8,991 nucleotides of DNA. Source: a virus (lineage: Duplodnaviria; Heunggongvirae; Uroviricota; Caudoviricetes). The notes beneath the pieces are model-generated. The model was given only the letters and a program-made list of their open reading frames with translations, was not told where the DNA came from and did not search any database. This document shows, piece after piece, positions 1,553 through 8,587 of the stretch (position 1 is the stretch's first letter; each line of letters opens with the position of its first letter). Where the stretch lies: the IMG/VR virus record IMGVR_UViG_2675903578_000015; one strand, written 5' to 3'. A program made the position numbers and the translations under genes.

Positions 1553-1740
1553 TCACGAGGACTGAAGTTTCTCGCAATTAAAATTTATCAGTTTTACTTT
1601 CTGCTCTCTGGAAACGCCTGCTTCTTTTTTACCTGAGAGCATTTTTTCGCATTCTGATTTCGTTAGTTTAGATTTTGAATATCTTGTCCAGTTAGTAGGA
1701 GTGCCACCTTCCTTTTCAATAGTGGCGGTAATTTTATACA
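1553..1740 (-). CDS. ydaC: Small prophage protein of unknown function, 62 aa from MYKITATIEKEGG... (66 aa if the upstream ATG at 1753 is used)
   Basis: Minus-strand ORF with TGA stop at 1555-1553. The ATG at 1740 is preceded by GGAGG with a 6-nt spacer; the alternative ATG at 1753 abuts the masked block. Position between xis and recT matches recalled ydaC of Rac. Confidence 0.65.
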
Positions 1741-1755
1741 TGAACACCTCCATTA

Positions 1756-2006
1756 NNNNNNNNNNNNNNNNNNNNNNNNNNNNNNNNNNNNNNNNNNNNN
1801 NNNNNNNNNNNNNNNNNNNNNNNNNNNNNNNNNNNNNNNNNNNNNNNNNNNNNNNNNNNNNNNNNNNNNNNNNNNNNNNNNNNNNNNNNNNNNNNNNNNN
1901 NNNNNNNNNNNNNNNNNNNNNNNNNNNNNNNNNNNNNNNNNNNNNNNNNNNNNNNNNNNNNNNNNNNNNNNNNNNNNNNNNNNNNNNNNNNNNNNNNNNN
2001 NNNNNN
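1756..2006. other. Masked or undetermined bases (251 N)
   Basis: Run of n characters in the supplied sequence. It covers the 3' end of recT and the position where reference Rac carries the ralR/lar toxin gene. Confidence 1.
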
Positions 2007-2800
2007 TCGATTACACTGTATTCCCCGGTTAATACAGAGGAATCTGCAGGATCGATTGTCAGTGGTTCCTTTTCATCCATTGATACTGCACGCTGGATCT
2101 CAATTGATACGGGCAGATATTTGAACAGGCGACGAATAGCCGTTTTCTTTGCCATTTCTTCCCAGTGAGTTACCCACGGCCCGTTATTACCAGCTTTACT
2201 CTGGCTGCGCACCAGCTCAATCTGTTTGCGCGTCATAACTTCAAACTGAGTACCTCCGTCTTTCAGTCTTGCGACAGCATAGACGTGGGTAACAGGGGCA
2301 TCTTCGTTTTCTCCTGGGCGGTGTATTAACTTTTCATCAAGGCCAAATTCGAAATTAAACTCGTCACCTTCACGGACAACACGGGCTGACAGGCTGGCGA
2401 TTTGACCTGAACGGCGAGCCAGATCAATCATGCCGCGATAGCCAATGATTAGCTGAACGTTTTTTTTACCGCTCTTTTCGTTTTTATTACCAAAAGGCAG
2501 TAAATATGCATGACCGAGGGCGCTACCGGGCTCAAGTCCGAGCTGTGAACACTGTACGATTGCACTGACAAAACTCATAGTGTCACAGTTTCCTAACGCC
2601 GGAACTTTACGAATTTCTGTGGTGGCGATACGGATCATACGTTCAGCCGTCATATGGCGTGGAAGAGCTGCTGCCAGTTGCTCTTTCATTGATGGCTGGT
2701 TAATAAAACTAATCACGTCGTTATTTTTAATTGCTGCTGGTGCACGGTTTCCCTGAGTTTTTTGCAGATCGGCTTTTGCGATTGGTGGTTGCTTAGTCAT
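1991..2800 (-). CDS. recT: RecT single-strand annealing protein (Rac recombinase); 3' end and stop codon lie inside the masked block
   Basis: ATG at 2800-2798 preceded by AAGGAA. Translation [16 protein letters not shown]...[10 protein letters not shown] matches recalled RecT. The 1991 end is inferred from the recalled 269-aa length, not observed. The 434-aa ORF in the track is an artefact of reading through N. Confidence 0.88.
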
Positions 2801-5393
2801 TTGCATATTCCTTAGCCCAGCGGGGCAGTGATAACGTCTTAATAGCTGGCCATTCATCGGTATTGAGGCAGTCAGCCAGGGTTCGCAGATTGCGGTGATA
2901 TTCCAGCTGACCTGCCAGTTTTGCTTCTTCGCCCATCATGAAAATTTCAACCGGATAACGTCCGCATTCAATAGTTGTGCTGGCAACCAGAAAAACGAAA
3001 GTTGGCTGCACTCCAAACTGTGCTTCATAACCGTCACTGTAGAATGCATCCTGAACGTGATAGCGGTAGTCGTAATAAGCGGTTTTGAATCGTTGAATAT
3101 CCGCCGTAGTTTTCACGTCCATGATCCAGTGAAATTCAGGGATAATTTTGTCCGGACGGCACCGACACAAAATTGCTGTTTCAGGATCTTCCCAGTAAAT
3201 TGATGATTCAGCGTGTCCGGCGCTTTCAACAAGCCATTGCCCCAGCGGCAAAGCCATAACGCTCTGATACATGAGTTCAATTTTCCGGCCTTCTTCGGCA
3301 GTGATAACCGTTTTTCCTGTGCTTGCGCATTCCCTCAGAAACGCTTTCTCTTCTTCTTTTCCGGAGTTTGTCCGGCGGTTAAATTCAGGTGCTACGATAA
3401 AGCGGTTACTGAATTCTTCCGGCTCAAGTACCCGGCAGTGGAAAGCGGTTCCTAAATCGAGCGTTTTTGTCTTTGTGGTGTCCACGGGGGCATTTTTACG
3501 CCACAAATACAGTGCCGGAGTATCAGCAATGTCATCGAGCTGAGACTTACTGACACCGGGACCCGCGTGGTAATTCTCATTCGAAATTCCGTAATAAATA
3601 CCTGGCTCTATGTCTTCTACGATTACGGGATCTGCGACTTCGCCAGTTTCATCACTGCAATCGCGATGCGGATCGCTGCCAGCATTCTCATTGTGCGGAT
3701 GTTCAGCGCCTTCCATTTCCTCCGGATCATTTTCCTTAGCTTCAACCTGACTCTCTTCATCGAATGTTTCCTGGTATGTTGCGTCGCCCATCACCGCACC
3801 ACAGTCAGGGCAGTTATCCCCGCCAGTCTGGCCGCAGGCATTGCAGGCTATTTCCGGTTCCTGTTGCACTACTGGCTCAGGTTGATTCATATCCGGGCTG
3901 GTTTTTTCCGTTTCTGGCTGGTTCTGGTACACACAATCGCGAGTCTGGATCCCCTTTACCCATTTCGGATCGTTCGGGTCGCTAATTCCGTCAACAAATT
4001 CACCACGTGATGCAGCAAGCAATTTATCGGCATCGACAGGATTTTTTGATGGAATGTTTTTCCGGGCTTCATGGAGTTCTGCCCGCAGTTCCTGATATTT
4101 CGCATCAACAGAATTTACCTGTGACTGAGCATCCAGCGGCTGCGTGTCCTGATGATGTTCAGTTGCGTCCGGTTCCATTGTTTCAGCCTCTCCCTGTTCA
4201 ACTGCCGTTGTTCCAGATGGTTGCGGTTTTTCTTCATCATCCTGTTTTCCTTCTTCTGTTACTCGCTGCGGCATCGGGGCAGAGGAGCGACCGCAGGCAA
4301 TATCCACGATTTCCGGATCAGGGTTGGCATGATCGGTTTCAGTCAGTACTTTGTTCAGATATTCAGTGACGTGCGCGGGGATGACCTCGATCCCAATTGG
4401 TGCTTCTTTTACGGACGCAACCACGATGGCGCGGGAATAATCCAGCCCGCCAGGCATGGTGATGAATTTGTCGCGGAAAACAGAAAAGGGCGGTTTATTT
4501 TCAGCGATAATTTCCTCAATGCGTTTAGCGTGTGCCGGATGAAGGTTATAGATGTCCAGATCCATTGAACGGGCCAGTACGCCAGTGGCTACGTCCCGCG
4601 CCAGTGACGTCAGATCGTGTACGAAACCTTCGCCGCGATCGGTGAGGTTTCCGCCGCCAGCATTAGCACCGGAAGCCGTGCGAGTGATGTGTGAAACACG
4701 ATTACCCTTCATCCACTCTTTTGTCAGCAGTCCTCGATCGGTGTAGTCAGCGTTCAGGTATGCTTCGAAAAAAGCAGTTATCAGTCCCAGGTTTGAATTA
4801 CCAGGATTAGGGAAAACTTTGTCAGTGTCACGAACCAGTTTGTGGAGTTCGCGAATTTCCAGCGGGTCGAGCAGGCTGGTTTTGTGGGAAACAGCCAGGG
4901 CAGTAACAGCCGGTAGTTCTTCAGCCCGAGCAATGTGTAATGCCTGGAGTCCGTCGCGTGAAACGTGCGTTACCGGTTTTTCGCTGCCGTGTTGAGCAAG
5001 CCAACGAATGGGCAGTTCCTGGCCAGAAATTGGGAGTAGCATATTCTCCTCAATCTCAGTCATGTCTTCGCCGTTGACGTTGGTATTGCCTTGATAGTGA
5101 GCGTTGTCTGGTGCTGCTCCCGGTTTTAGTTCCCATGTCATGGAGTCTTTGCTGAGTTGATAGCGTTCACTCCAGGTAAAATCGATCTCACCTTCAGCGG
5201 GCAGGTCATTAACGACAGGAAAATTCGTGGCAACAGCTTTAAAATAGCTGCTCAGTTTTTTACCTGACTTAACGATCAGGTAGTCCAGAGTGGCACAGGT
5301 CGATTCAAAATCGTTGCTTGCCCACAGGACGACGTCAGGTTCACCGGATGATTTTTTCGCTTTCCGTAACAGGAAGAGTGGTTTTGTGCTCAT
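2793..5393 (-). CDS. recE: RecE exonuclease VIII, 866 aa; C-terminal third is the 5'-3' dsDNA exonuclease domain
   Basis: Uninterrupted 866-codon minus-strand ORF, ATG at 5393-5391, TAA at 2795-2793. The 3' end overlaps the recT start by 8 nt (ATGACTAA). Sequence matches recalled RecE. Confidence 0.95.
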
Positions 5394-6677: not shown

Positions 6678-7097
6678 ATGTTGGATGTATTTACTCCATT
6701 GTTGAAACTTTTTGCTAACGAGCCACTCGAAATACTTATGTATACGATTATCATTTTTGGTCTCACTCTCTGGCTGATACCGAAAGAGTTTACTGTCGCA
6801 TTCAATGCTTANNNNNNNNNNNNNNNNNNNNNNNNNNNNNNNNNNNNNNNNNNNNNNNNNNNNNNNNNNNNNNNNNNNNNNNNNNNNNNNNNNNNNNNNN
6901 NNNNNNNNNNNNNNNNNNNNNNNNNNNNNNNNNNNNNNNNNNNNNNNNNNNNNNNNNNNNNNNNNNNNNNNNNNNNNNNNNNNNNNNNNNNNNNNNNNNN
7001 NNNNNNNNNNNNNNNNNNNNNNNNNNNNNNNNNNNNNNNNNNNNNNNNNNNNNNNNNNNNNNNNNNNNNNNNNNNNNNNNNNNNNACATCAGAGTGA
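6678..7097 (+). CDS. sieB: Superinfection exclusion protein B, inner-membrane protein; most of the body is masked
   Basis: ATG at 6678 with GAGAG upstream. The visible N-terminus MLDVFTPLLKLFANEPLEILMYTIIIFGLTLWLIPKEFTVAFNA contains a hydrophobic transmembrane-like segment. The frame reopens after the mask as ..TSE-TGA at 7095-7097. Matches recalled Rac SieB; exact start and length are uncertain. Confidence 0.7.
   Translation: MLDVFTPLLKLFANEPLEILMYTIIIFGLTLWLIPKEFTVAFNAXXXXXXXXXXXXXXXXXXXXXXXXXXXXXXXXXXXXXXXXXXXXXXXXXXXXXXXXXXXXXXXXXXXXXXXXXXXXXXXXXXXXXXXXXXXXTSE
6812..7085. other. Masked or undetermined bases (274 N)
   Basis: Run of n characters; hides about 90 codons of sieB. Confidence 1.
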
Positions 7098-8277: not shown

Positions 8278-8574
8278 ATGAACCAGAAAACACTTGAAGA
8301 TGTAATNNNNNNNNNNNNNNNNNNNNNNNNNNNNNNNNNNNNNNNNNNNNNNNNNNNNNNNNNNNNNNNNNNNNNNNNNNNNNNNNNNNNNNNNNNNNNN
8401 NNNNNNNNNNNNNNNNNNNNNNNNNNNNNNNNNNNNNNNNNNNNNNNNNNNNNNNNNNNNNNNNNNNNNNNNNNNNNNNNNNNNNNNNNNNNNNNNNNNN
8501 NNNNNNNNNNNNNNNNNNNNNNNNNNNNNNNNNNNNNNNNNNNNNNNNNNNNNNNNNNNNNNNNNNNNNNNNNN
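8278..8574 (+). CDS. ydaS: Cro-like small regulator/toxin partner YdaS; only the first 9 codons (MNQKTLEDV) are visible
   Basis: ATG at 8278 with GAGGG 4 nt upstream, divergent from racR. The 8574 end is inferred from the recalled length of about 98 aa and lies in the masked block, so it is not observed. Confidence 0.5.
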
Positions 8575-8587
8575 NNNNNNNNNNNNN
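8307..8587. other. Masked or undetermined bases (281 N)
   Basis: Run of n characters; hides most of ydaS and the start of ydaT. The 261-aa ORF 8206-8991 in the track is an artefact of reading through N. Confidence 1.

Follow-up and report, generated by a model that had tools for sequence, protein, structure and literature searches.

Anatomy, conservation and possible role of the N-terminal region of the Rac prophage protein RecE

The recE locus and the folded head of its product

The window, the whole stretch of 8,991 nucleotides that was analysed, is the Rac prophage of Escherichia coli K-12, and the gene context intR, xis, ralR/RalA, recT, recE, racC, kilR and racR was seen. The gene recE (exodeoxyribonuclease VIII) lies on the minus strand at 2793..5393 as an ORF of 866 aa plus stop, and the start codon of recT (2800-2798) overlaps its end. 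The NCBIfam equivalog NF007259 for exodeoxyribonuclease VIII spans aa 1-866 with 1828 bits (cutoff 1269), and the protein is 100% identical to cluster representative P0001, whose cluster comprises 6555 member sequences. It is thus the same protein as the exonuclease VIII (RecE) of E. coli K-12, with no differences. Three plus-strand ORFs (3567-4010, 4007-4369 and 4152-4568) lie antisense within recE and were treated as mechanical ORFs.

The PD-(D/E)XK 5'-3' exonuclease domain occupies aa 598-866 (2796..3602, minus strand). The earlier note had confined the exonuclease to the C-terminal end of the protein, and its extent is indeed only ~260-280 residues: the only solved structure in RecE, 3H4R, covers aa ~605-866 (E 1.3e-176), PF12684 matches aa 615-850, and the fragment of aa 588-866 (E588) fully keeps the 5' exonuclease activity (PMC11257833). 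The N-terminal region is needed neither for exonuclease activity nor for standard recombineering (PMC11257833, PMC11611040). Two reviews from 2023 describe it as "of unknown function" (PMC11611040, PMC11610958), in agreement with the earlier note, which had called its function poorly defined. That description needs one qualification, namely that full-length RecE strongly boosts linear-linear recombination according to Fu 2012 (cited in PMC11611040). Since the reviews give no function beyond this boost, the region is an already-known, unexplained feature, a known unknown. It is also the only part that distinguishes full-length RecE from the ordinary truncated enzyme, and full-length RecE/RecT is the engine by which large gene clusters are cloned directly.

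The region of aa 1-600 as a whole has a net charge of -52 and a pI of 4.6. The earlier note had treated it as a single undefined stretch, a view that has to be replaced by one of distinct parts: a folded aa 1-380, of which PF06630 covers aa 2-178, a tether and a Cys4 island. Structure prediction, which the same note had proposed as a check, gave a confident fold for aa 1-380 and left the acidic tether mostly disordered. In these models aa 1-380 folds with confidence into a conserved unit of two domains, hereafter the head.

Domain A (aa 1-100; 5094..5393, minus strand) is of mixed alpha/beta type and forms the first part of PF06630 (Exonuc_VIII, no assigned function), which matches aa 2-178 with an E-value of 6e-98 and 327 bits (cutoff 25). 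It carries the motifs DLPxE...D..TW...P with conserved P65, E67, D83, W87 and P95, and was modelled at a pLDDT of 80-97 in the full-length model but of only 47-86 in the first model. The rest of PF06630 falls in a connector (aa 101-179; 4857..5093, minus strand), delimited from Pfam and the models, in which a loop at 99-124 is followed by helices. This connector is a mosaic among relatives, with amino acid identities as different as 22% to Rac-SA53 and 91% to the GPEC709 DEDDh protein. The core helical domain B (aa 180-380; 4254..4856, minus strand) is the best-conserved part of the whole family, 82 of the 83 representatives with 400 aa or more having it, and reached a pLDDT of 87-98 in both models. 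Its motifs are RTxSGxxAGGxxxTDR, DFDIY, PGxLDYSRA and LTETDHxxP, and D252, R253, L264, R321, A322 and P339 are invariant.

Searches for relatives of these parts in characterised families were negative throughout. Pfam, NCBIfam and PADLOC gave PF06630 alone for aa 1-600, the PADLOC defence models gave zero matches and PDB sequence profiles gave no match. A fold search of aa 1-600 found no characterised family, the searched model being one with a low-confidence domain A. No Pfam or PDB relative of domain B was found by sequence or fold searches, and permissive Pfam scans of each sub-region returned only noise for domain B and for element C of the tether. A domain B profile run against a set of 5.8 billion proteins retrieved fragments of the same family only, and no further architectures. 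Assignment to a known family with an established function, against which the earlier note had weighed its own view, was thus not obtained for any part of aa 1-600, PF06630 itself being without one.

The acidic tether and its conserved elements

Between the head and the exonuclease lies a tether of 207 residues that is acidic and mostly predicted to be disordered, low pLDDT in two AF2 runs serving as the proxy for disorder, and that contains a small helical element and the Cys4 island. The two acidic tracts pointed out in the earlier note are both real. The first, aa 380-420, has 13 D/E among its 41 residues (32%) and a net charge of -11, and corresponds to acidic linker 1 (aa 381-425; 4119..4253, minus strand), which is predicted to be disordered with a pLDDT below 50 over 388-423 and 388-426 in the two models. 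Its dN/dS is 0.56-1.67, where this and all other dN/dS values given here rest on 27-56 codons of a mosaic gene. The second, aa 537-597 (nt 3603-3785), has 22 D/E of 61 residues (36%), 2 K/R and a net charge of -20. It takes in acidic linker 2 (aa 542-597; 3603..3770, minus strand), likewise predicted to be disordered at a pLDDT below 50; the net charge of aa 542-600 is -19. No tandem DNA repeats were found as a source of the acidic tracts.

Between the two acidic linkers the models and conservation delimit element C (aa 426-480; 3954..4118, minus strand), comprising a helix at ~426-445, a short helix at 455-462 and a conserved 16-residue motif. It carries the sequence SDPxDPKW, with A460, P473, D475, P476 and W478 conserved, has a pLDDT of 62-90 and a dN/dS of 0.07-0.43, and occurs in roughly half of the representatives. 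A Q/E/N/P-rich linker of variable length follows (aa 481-514; 3852..3953, minus strand; pLDDT below 50), which takes up insertions of 7-14 aa in relatives and has a dN/dS of 0.36-0.70. In the full-length AF2 model the pLDDT was below 50 at 388-426, 480-516 and 521-591. This model brought no gain in confidence for aa 426-541 and no sign of docking on the nuclease, which is a weak test.

All 33 nuclease-bearing representatives measured have a segment of 91-272 aa joining domain B to the nuclease, and it carries -0.09 to -0.22 charge per residue against -0.04 in the remaining protein (n=33). The tether is accordingly conserved in composition, not in sequence, across the 33 relatives, and it is rich in indels with a dN/dS of 0.5-1.7. 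Acidic disordered tails occur in E. coli SSB, T7 gp2.5 and T4 gp32, where they are C-terminal, ~10-60 aa long and have defined partners. The RecE tether resembles these tails in being acidic and, as predicted, disordered, in bearing short conserved hydrophobic or aromatic motifs and in belonging to a DNA-processing protein, but differs from them in being internal and 91-272 aa long.

The Cys4 island (aa 515-541; 3771..3851, minus strand) is a putative zinc knuckle or mini zinc ribbon. The C-x2-C-x7-C-x2-C cluster reported in the earlier note is exact, its 15 residues being aa 517-531 with the four cysteines (C517, C520, C528 and C531) at nt 3801-3845, and these form two CxxC knuckles within the consensus CxxCGxxGGxxCPDCGxVMGDxTY. 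For a protein of 866 aa containing 14 Cys, chance alone would yield about 0.0012 clusters of the form CxxC-x(5-25)-CxxC. The dN/dS of the island is 0.12-0.25 as opposed to 0.5-0.9 in its flanks, and by this comparison of coding sequences the island is under purifying selection. It is also kept in P0208, a divergent protein from Salmonella with unrelated flanks, and most of the 22 distinct variants of the island retain all four cysteines. The exceptions are fragments, the deletion fusion P0127, the single-sequence variant P0037 (C517R) and P0135, which retains GPVMGDATY without the cysteines. The knuckle probably binds zinc. It shares two CxxC and the CxxCG / CPxCG signatures with C4 zinc ribbons and rubredoxin-type knuckles (DZR, Zn_ribbon_3), from which it differs in a spacer of only 7 residues and in sub-threshold scores. 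All zinc-ribbon Pfam models stayed below threshold, the best being DZR (E 0.006; 17.1 bits where 27.3 is required), and neither model gave a confident ribbon fold for the island (pLDDT ~40-57). The island is present in about 11 of the 83 representatives; this minority presence and the cysteine-less P0135 mark the knuckle as an accessory and not as the core of the function. At the DNA level, no other piece of the region is as widespread in E. coli as the segment encoding it, which occurs in 4514 of 5426 complete genomes and in up to 9 places per genome.

Exchange of nucleases and spread of the family

Relatives whose identity to RecE is 98-100% across aa 1-~545/585 bear other nucleases. P0013 (1023 aa) has a different, longer PD-(D/E)XK domain and its identity to RecE ends at ~aa 585, and P0118 (789 aa) has a DEDDh 3'-5' exonuclease (PF16473, E 3e-67) with identity ending at ~aa 545-590. 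The nuclease junction falls within acidic linker 2. The 83 representatives (at least 400 aa) include ~21 with PD-(D/E)XK, ~14 with DEDDh and ~45 without a detectable nuclease, the last being an upper bound that includes ORFs truncated at contig ends. As domain B accompanies PD-(D/E)XK, DEDDh or no nuclease, the head is independent of the type and polarity of the nuclease. The neighbouring genes vary likewise: recT comes after the PD-(D/E)XK versions, and xis-int comes directly after the DEDDh versions with no annealase. The N-terminal module is therefore independent of RecT as well.

The region is conserved in Escherichia, Salmonella, Klebsiella, Enterobacter, Brenneria and functional phages, a range drawn from phage matches, cluster names and source names, and domains A and B, element C and the Cys4 island are under purifying selection (dN/dS 0.07-0.56). 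It has no counterpart in lambda Exo/Red-alpha, which shares its role, core nuclease fold, ring and partner annealase with the C-terminal domain of RecE (PMC11611040) but has 226 aa and no N-terminal extension corresponding to RecE aa 1-600. 'RecE-2' and DnaQ-like nucleases occur in lambdoid Rec modules (PMC12315714). Closer to the N-terminal region are the prophage 3'-5' exonuclease/YdfE-type proteins (812-823 aa), represented by the Qin ydfE pseudogene, phage HannyBb and the CP-933P type. In common with RecE they have part of domain B as well as element C, the Cys4 island and the acidic tether, and their genes take the same early-left operon slot as recE, after kil or dicB and before xis-int. 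They differ in that the nuclease at the C-terminus is of the DEDDh type, with opposite polarity, or is missing, that no recT comes after them and that the N-terminal domain can be YdfE_N (PF27430) in place of PF06630. In the corresponding B2 sub-family (YdfE/DEDDh type) the Gly-rich TDR half of domain B has been swapped for unrelated sequence and the C-terminal half is kept. Direct BLASTP of K-12 YdfE against RecE aa 1-600 gave no significant match, and the link between the two goes through intermediates such as P0225 and P0151.

Possible roles of the N-terminal region

The explanation that we put first, and hold tentatively, is that the first ~600 residues constitute a nuclease-independent accessory module, carried in cis on a flexible acidic tether, with a recruiting or bridging role. 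The anatomy described above is that of a two-domain head (aa 1-380), an acidic disordered tether of ~200 residues and a ring-forming exonuclease, with two conserved beads within the tether, namely element C (SDPxDPKW) and the Cys4 knuckle followed by VMGDxTY. Every subunit of the exonuclease tetramer would bear one head on a long negative arm repelled by DNA, and the acidic tracts would be spacers selected for charge and flexibility and not for sequence. We infer that a partner protein or a DNA structure may dock on heads and beads, and that this contact could recruit or retain the nuclease at DNA ends or bridge to a second end or filament. Such bridging would account for why only full-length RecE joins two linear molecules efficiently, while the nuclease domain alone suffices for exonuclease activity and for linear-circular recombineering.

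The confident fold of the head (pLDDT 87-98) and its invariant polar residues (TDR, DYSR and TETDH) were counted in favour of this accessory module, and so were the exchange of nucleases, the acidic tether of all 33 nuclease-bearing representatives, the selection on the Cys4 bead amid relaxed flanks, the independence from RecT and the full activity of aa 588-866. Against it count the restriction of the Cys4 island to a minority of the family, the low model confidence for that island and the acidity of the head, whose pI of 5.4 (aa 1-375) is unusual for a DNA binder, and neither a partner nor a DNA-binding activity of the N-terminal region was predicted here. Possible too, and held less firmly, is the view that a family of Enterobacterales prophage proteins is defined by the head, whose proper task would be something other than exonucleolysis, namely a distinct activity or the hijacking of a host factor, delivered with interchangeable nucleases (5'-3', 3'-5' or none) on the acidic tether.

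The invariant polar cluster in domain B would, by its residues, equally fit an enzyme or a small-ligand site. It is rather unlikely, though worth weighing, that domain B is an enzyme or a binder of small ligands or nucleic acid, which would make RecE a two-activity protein in which the tether couples the second activity to the exonuclease. Besides the very confident fold (pLDDT 87-98), the unusual density of polar and glycine residues that are invariant or nearly so (R220, T239, G242, AGG 245-247, T251-D252-R253, Y282, R291, S320-R321, E352 and H355) speaks for it, as does the fact that domain B is the sole element common to essentially all members, nuclease-less ones included. However, the loss of the TDR half in the B2 sub-family speaks against a universally conserved active site, and no likeness of structure or sequence to any enzyme was found.

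The earlier note had offered DNA mimicry or flexible linkage for the acidic tracts. Predicted disorder, a dN/dS of 0.5-1.7 and indels favour the flexible linker, and a structured DNA mimic found no support. Known DNA mimics such as Ocr, Gam and ArdA are rigid folds with a fixed spacing of charges, and a rigid fold with DNA-like acidic spacing was not seen in RecE, where both tracts are predicted to be disordered (pLDDT below 50). We thus regard as improbable that the tracts inhibit host nucleases or defences in a Gam/Ocr-like manner, or auto-inhibit the exonuclease channel until an end is engaged. Such roles would agree with a net charge of -20 over 61 residues directly upstream of the nuclease domain, with the acidity kept in 33 of 33 nuclease-bearing relatives, and with a Rac recombination module without a recognised anti-RecBCD gene, RecE-type modules of this kind having been noted (PMC12315714). 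They agree poorly with tracts that are predicted to be disordered, vary in sequence and length at a dN/dS near 1, and precede nucleases with differing DNA-binding surfaces, and docking on the nuclease was not apparent in the full-length AF2 model, weak as this test is. Moreover, full-length RecET recombineering still co-expresses the RecBCD inhibitor Red-gamma, without which linear DNA would be destroyed by RecBCD (PMC5861427).

Little credence is likewise given to the Cys4 island as a zinc-ribbon nucleic-acid binder that grips the 3' ssDNA tail or the DNA end and so gives full-length RecE its extra function. The two rubredoxin/zinc-ribbon-type knuckles (CxxCG ... CPxCG), the sub-threshold matches to several zinc-ribbon Pfam families, the purifying selection and the wide occurrence of the encoding segment (4514/5426 E. 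coli genomes) are consistent with it. On the other hand, aa 517-541 contain 0 K/R and have a net charge of -3, and this and the strongly acidic surroundings are unfavourable for DNA binding; the island is missing from most of the wider family, the cysteines are dispensable in P0135 and model confidence is low. The island more resembles a structural knuckle presenting VMGDxTY...F to a protein partner.

Rac is a cryptic prophage whose recE gene K-12 normally keeps silent. This, together with dispensability for exonuclease activity and standard recombineering (PMC11257833, PMC11611040), could suggest that the N-terminal region is the baggage of a defective prophage without selected function, a reading that is very hard to maintain and largely refuted by purifying selection on domains A and B, element C and the Cys4 island (dN/dS 0.07-0.56), conservation from Escherichia to Brenneria and in functional phages, retention with three different nucleases, and the linear-linear phenotype of Fu 2012 (cited in PMC11611040).

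The view of the head as the carrier of a distinct activity or host-factor hijack would, if true, explain the unique ability of full-length RecE to join two linear DNAs, and the head would then stand for a type of accessory domain, in recombination or host takeover, that is new. The analysis yields defined parts that can be mutated, which are the head (TDR, DYSR, TETDH), element C, the Cys4 + VMGDxTY island, and the charge and length of the tether. As the module is indifferent to the nuclease it carries and is very common, 4514 of the 5426 complete genomes of E. coli containing DNA related to it, its role is probably broader than RecET recombination.

The recE gene and the anatomy of its N-terminal region

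That RecE (exodeoxyribonuclease VIII; NCBIfam equivalog match, 1828 bits) carries a poorly understood N-terminal region is already documented, and the existence of this region is no surprise to the specialist. Two 2023 reviews describe it as 'of unknown function' or 'unclear' (PMC11611040, PMC11610958), in line with the earlier note, whose coordinates were all right. The nuclease occupies the C-terminus only, as that note had also claimed: PDB 3H4R matches aa 605-866 and PF12684 aa 615-850, and a truncation comprising residues 588-866 keeps full 5' exonuclease activity (PMC11257833).

The window covers the E. coli K-12 Rac prophage at its recombination end. The gene (2793-5393, minus strand, 866 aa) encodes a protein 100% identical to a cluster representative covering 6555 sequences. 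The same strand carries intR (1-1236), an excisionase-like ORF (1238-1477), the small toxin ORF ralR, recT and, listed after recE, racC, kilR and racR, while the RalA antitoxin sRNA (1557-1735, plus strand; Rfam RF02694, 225 bits, full length) is antisense to ralR. There are three runs of N at 1756-2006 (251 bases), 6812-7085 (274) and 8307-8587 (281), the first of which takes away the C-terminal end of the partly masked recT, so that ORF calling merges recT and ralR into an artificial ORF of 434 aa (1553-2857, minus strand) with ralR at its 3' end. The recT ATG (2800-2798) overlaps the last codons of recE and its TAA stop (2795-2793; minus strand, ATGACTAA), an arrangement typical of translational coupling. 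Three plus-strand ORFs of 120-147 aa within recE (3567-4010, 4007-4369 and 4152-4568) are taken as mechanical.

The region upstream of the nuclease is indeed large, but it is not the single undefined stretch of the earlier note. Two AlphaFold2 runs with family alignments, the first on aa 1-600 and the second on the full-length protein, agree in dividing it into several parts. Residues 1-380 are predicted to form one folded unit, made up of an alpha/beta domain A (aa 1-100; pLDDT rising from 47-86 in the first run to 80-97 in the second), a connector (aa 101-179; helices preceded by a loop at 99-124, with second-run pLDDT of about 76-92 for aa 111-160) and a helical core, domain B (aa 180-380; 87-98 in both runs). 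These are followed by acidic linker 1 (aa 381-425), element C (aa 426-480; one long and one short helix plus the conserved loop SDPNDPKW, at pLDDT 62-90), a Q/E/P-rich linker (aa 481-514), the Cys4 island (aa 515-541; pLDDT only about 40-57) and acidic linker 2 (aa 542-597), with pLDDT below 50 in all three linkers.

Pfam covers only aa 2-178 of the folded unit (PF06630, a family without assigned function), and neither the local library nor newer precomputed annotations, where proteins with domain B only carry '-', offer a Pfam model for domain B. Relatives of known function were found neither by Foldseek against the PDB (best E 0.86) and BFVD (best E 0.4) nor by HMM profiles against all PDB sequences, negatives that are meaningful for the confidently modelled domain B but not for domain A, whose confident model postdates the fold search. 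PADLOC gave no match for the N-terminal region, and no characterised domain family emerged for it from the Pfam, fold and profile searches. The invariant residues of domain B (motifs TDR, DYSR and TETDH) suggest, as a rival explanation of the region, an autonomous enzymatic or ligand-binding activity, a reading weakened by the YdfE/DEDDh sub-family, which lacks the TDR half.

The acidic tether and the Cys4 island

In 33 of 33 nuclease-bearing representatives, 91-272 residues separate domain B from the nuclease, a segment rich in polar residues and always net acidic (-0.09 to -0.22 per residue versus -0.04 in the remainder of each protein). RecE has both acidic tracts described in the earlier note, at aa 380-420 (32% D/E, net charge -11) and aa 537-597 (nt 3603-3785; 36% D/E, net charge -20). 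When K-12 recE was compared codon by codon with four homologues, dN/dS was 0.56-1.67 for acidic linker 1 (indels up to 3 aa), 0.49-0.92 for acidic linker 2 (indels of 5-6 aa; three informative comparisons, the fourth being 100% identical there) and 0.36-0.70 for the Q/E/P linker (insertions of 7-14 aa). The values for domain B were 0.13-0.56 (indels up to 11 aa in one comparison), and for element C 0.07-0.43 (indels of 2-5 aa in two comparisons). Charge and flexibility of the linkers are thus conserved, and their sequence is not. No tandem DNA repeats were found beneath the acidic tracts. Of the two roles proposed for these tracts in the earlier note, that of flexible linker is favoured. DNA mimicry or auto-inhibition, the rival reading of such strongly charged segments, is opposed by their disordered-tether signature, which is not that of a structured mimic, and the continued use of the RecBCD inhibitor Red-gamma in recombineering with full-length RecET (PMC5861427) speaks against a role like that of Gam.

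The Cys4 motif lies where it had been placed (aa 517-531, nt 3801-3845), and only about 0.001 such clusters are expected in RecE by chance. Where present, the island follows the consensus CxxCGxxGGxxCPDCGxVMGDxTY, sharply conserved amid fast-evolving flanks (dN/dS 0.12-0.25 in comparisons with K-12 recE) and kept even in a Salmonella representative, P0208, with unrelated flanks. Among the distinct variants, exceptions to the full Cys4 are fragments, a deletion fusion, one single-sequence C517R variant and the representative P0135, which keeps GPVMGDATY without the cysteines. With their signatures CxxCG and CPxCG the knuckles are of the rubredoxin or zinc-ribbon type, and several zinc-ribbon Pfam models match the peptide below threshold (best DZR, E 0.006, 17 bits against a cutoff of 27). 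Nucleic-acid binding is a rival explanation for an island of this type, which here contains no basic residues and has a net charge of -3. The island is probably a Zn-stabilised knuckle that would offer the adjacent motif to a protein partner. In the papers that could be searched, neither the Cys4 motif nor a function for the acidic tracts came up.

Modular exchange within the RecE family

Scanned exhaustively with HMMER, 1.84 billion representatives gave only 244 family clusters at E <=0.001, and the named members all belong to Enterobacterales or their phages (Escherichia, Shigella, Salmonella, Klebsiella, Enterobacter, Citrobacter, Kluyvera and Brenneria). Of 83 representatives of at least 400 aa, dissected by local jackhmmer, 82 have domain B, most have domain A and about half have element C. 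The Cys4 island, present in about 11, is an accessory of one family branch and not part of the family core. About 21 of the 83 end in PD-(D/E)XK and about 14 in a DEDDh 3'-5' exonuclease (PF16473), and the nuclease was undetectable in about 45, an upper bound since some ORFs are truncated. A 2025 survey of lambdoid recombination modules mentions DnaQ-like nucleases and nuclease-less 'RecE-2' proteins without analysing them (PMC12315714).

Two E. coli representatives exemplify the exchange: P0013 (1023 aa) equals K-12 RecE to aa ~585 and continues into a different, longer PD-(D/E)XK domain, and P0118 (789 aa), with a DEDDh exonuclease at its end, equals it to aa ~545. Both junctions fall within acidic linker 2. 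The downstream genes differ as well. PD-(D/E)XK forms have recT next to them (Rac, Gifsy-2, Rac-SA53, strain OkiPb01679), DEDDh forms are directly followed by xis-int (HannyBb, GPEC709, vB_EcoS-813R8), and the nuclease-less YdfE_N/YdfE_C relatives P0225 and P0189, from metagenomic lambdoid prophages, precede not recT but a 187-aa Sipho_Gp157 gene (PF05565; L003:8358-8921, L005:8205-8768) whose start overlaps the stop of the YdfE-type gene. The N-terminal module is thus portable, and independent of nuclease type, nuclease polarity and RecT.

The most widespread piece of recE in E. coli is window 3640-4034 (aa ~453-585; the end of element C, the Cys4 island and linker 2), to which related DNA was found by megablast in 4514 of 5426 complete genomes, in up to nine places per genome. 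Most of these places lie within genes annotated '3'-5' exonuclease' or 'exonuclease'. DNA of the K-12-type nuclease is present in 1736 genomes. A RecE-family paralogue survives in the K-12 Qin prophage as an N-terminal remnant, the ydfE pseudogene (L006:5079-5999), which is interrupted by IS2. The match is to aa 22-206 of P0225, a YdfE_N-type protein (E 1e-30), and intact versions in the same dicB-ydfD-X-xis-int position (L009, L010, L002) are '3'-5' exonucleases' of 812-823 aa. K-12 therefore has RecE in Rac and, as a second family member, a dead DEDDh-type protein in Qin.

The recE gene is strongly mosaic. Compared with one homologue, domain A is 31% but the nuclease 99% identical; compared with another, domain A is 95% but the connector 22% identical. 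The dS of adjacent segments ranges from 0 to >1.5, and such variation between neighbours shows repeated recombination at domain boundaries. In-frame deletion fusions were also seen in public E. coli assemblies (P0002/P0004, 807 aa; P0121, 703 aa; P0036, 842 aa; P0003, 902 aa), joining RecE(1-~656 or 1-528) to the RecT body or RecE(1-~660) to the IntR integrase. They recall sbcA strains, in which deletions activate or rearrange recE. In a further variant, P0127 (756 aa), SGANAGGGN, the Gly-rich loop of domain B (aa ~241-249), runs straight into GGDNCPDCG, which is the second half of the Cys4 island; aa ~250-526 have been lost in frame, apparently via short GGxN microhomology.

A possible role in joining linear molecules

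The present analysis bears directly on anatomy, conservation, modularity and selection pattern only. The best-supported picture is that of a folded and conserved head connected to an interchangeable nuclease by a long tether, acidic and flexible, that carries two small conserved beads. In the accounts of Fu et al. (2012) given in PMC11611040 and PMC11610958, and in PMC5861427, the only N-terminal effect known is that full-length RecE with RecT is far better at linear-linear recombination. Taken together with this phenotype, the anatomy points, tentatively, to a recruiting or bridging role. Each subunit of the nuclease ring would carry a cis-acting module that may hold the enzyme at a DNA end, or draw in a second end or filament, and either would favour the joining of two linear molecules. 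That the region has no function at all is largely excluded by the conservation data.

What is added to the known existence of this region is a parts list and three observations not found in the searchable literature, namely the same N-terminal module on nucleases of opposite polarity, an acidic tether universal in the family, and a conserved Cys4 and VMGDxTY island. It can now be tested more directly why recombination between two linear DNAs is driven only by full-length RecE.
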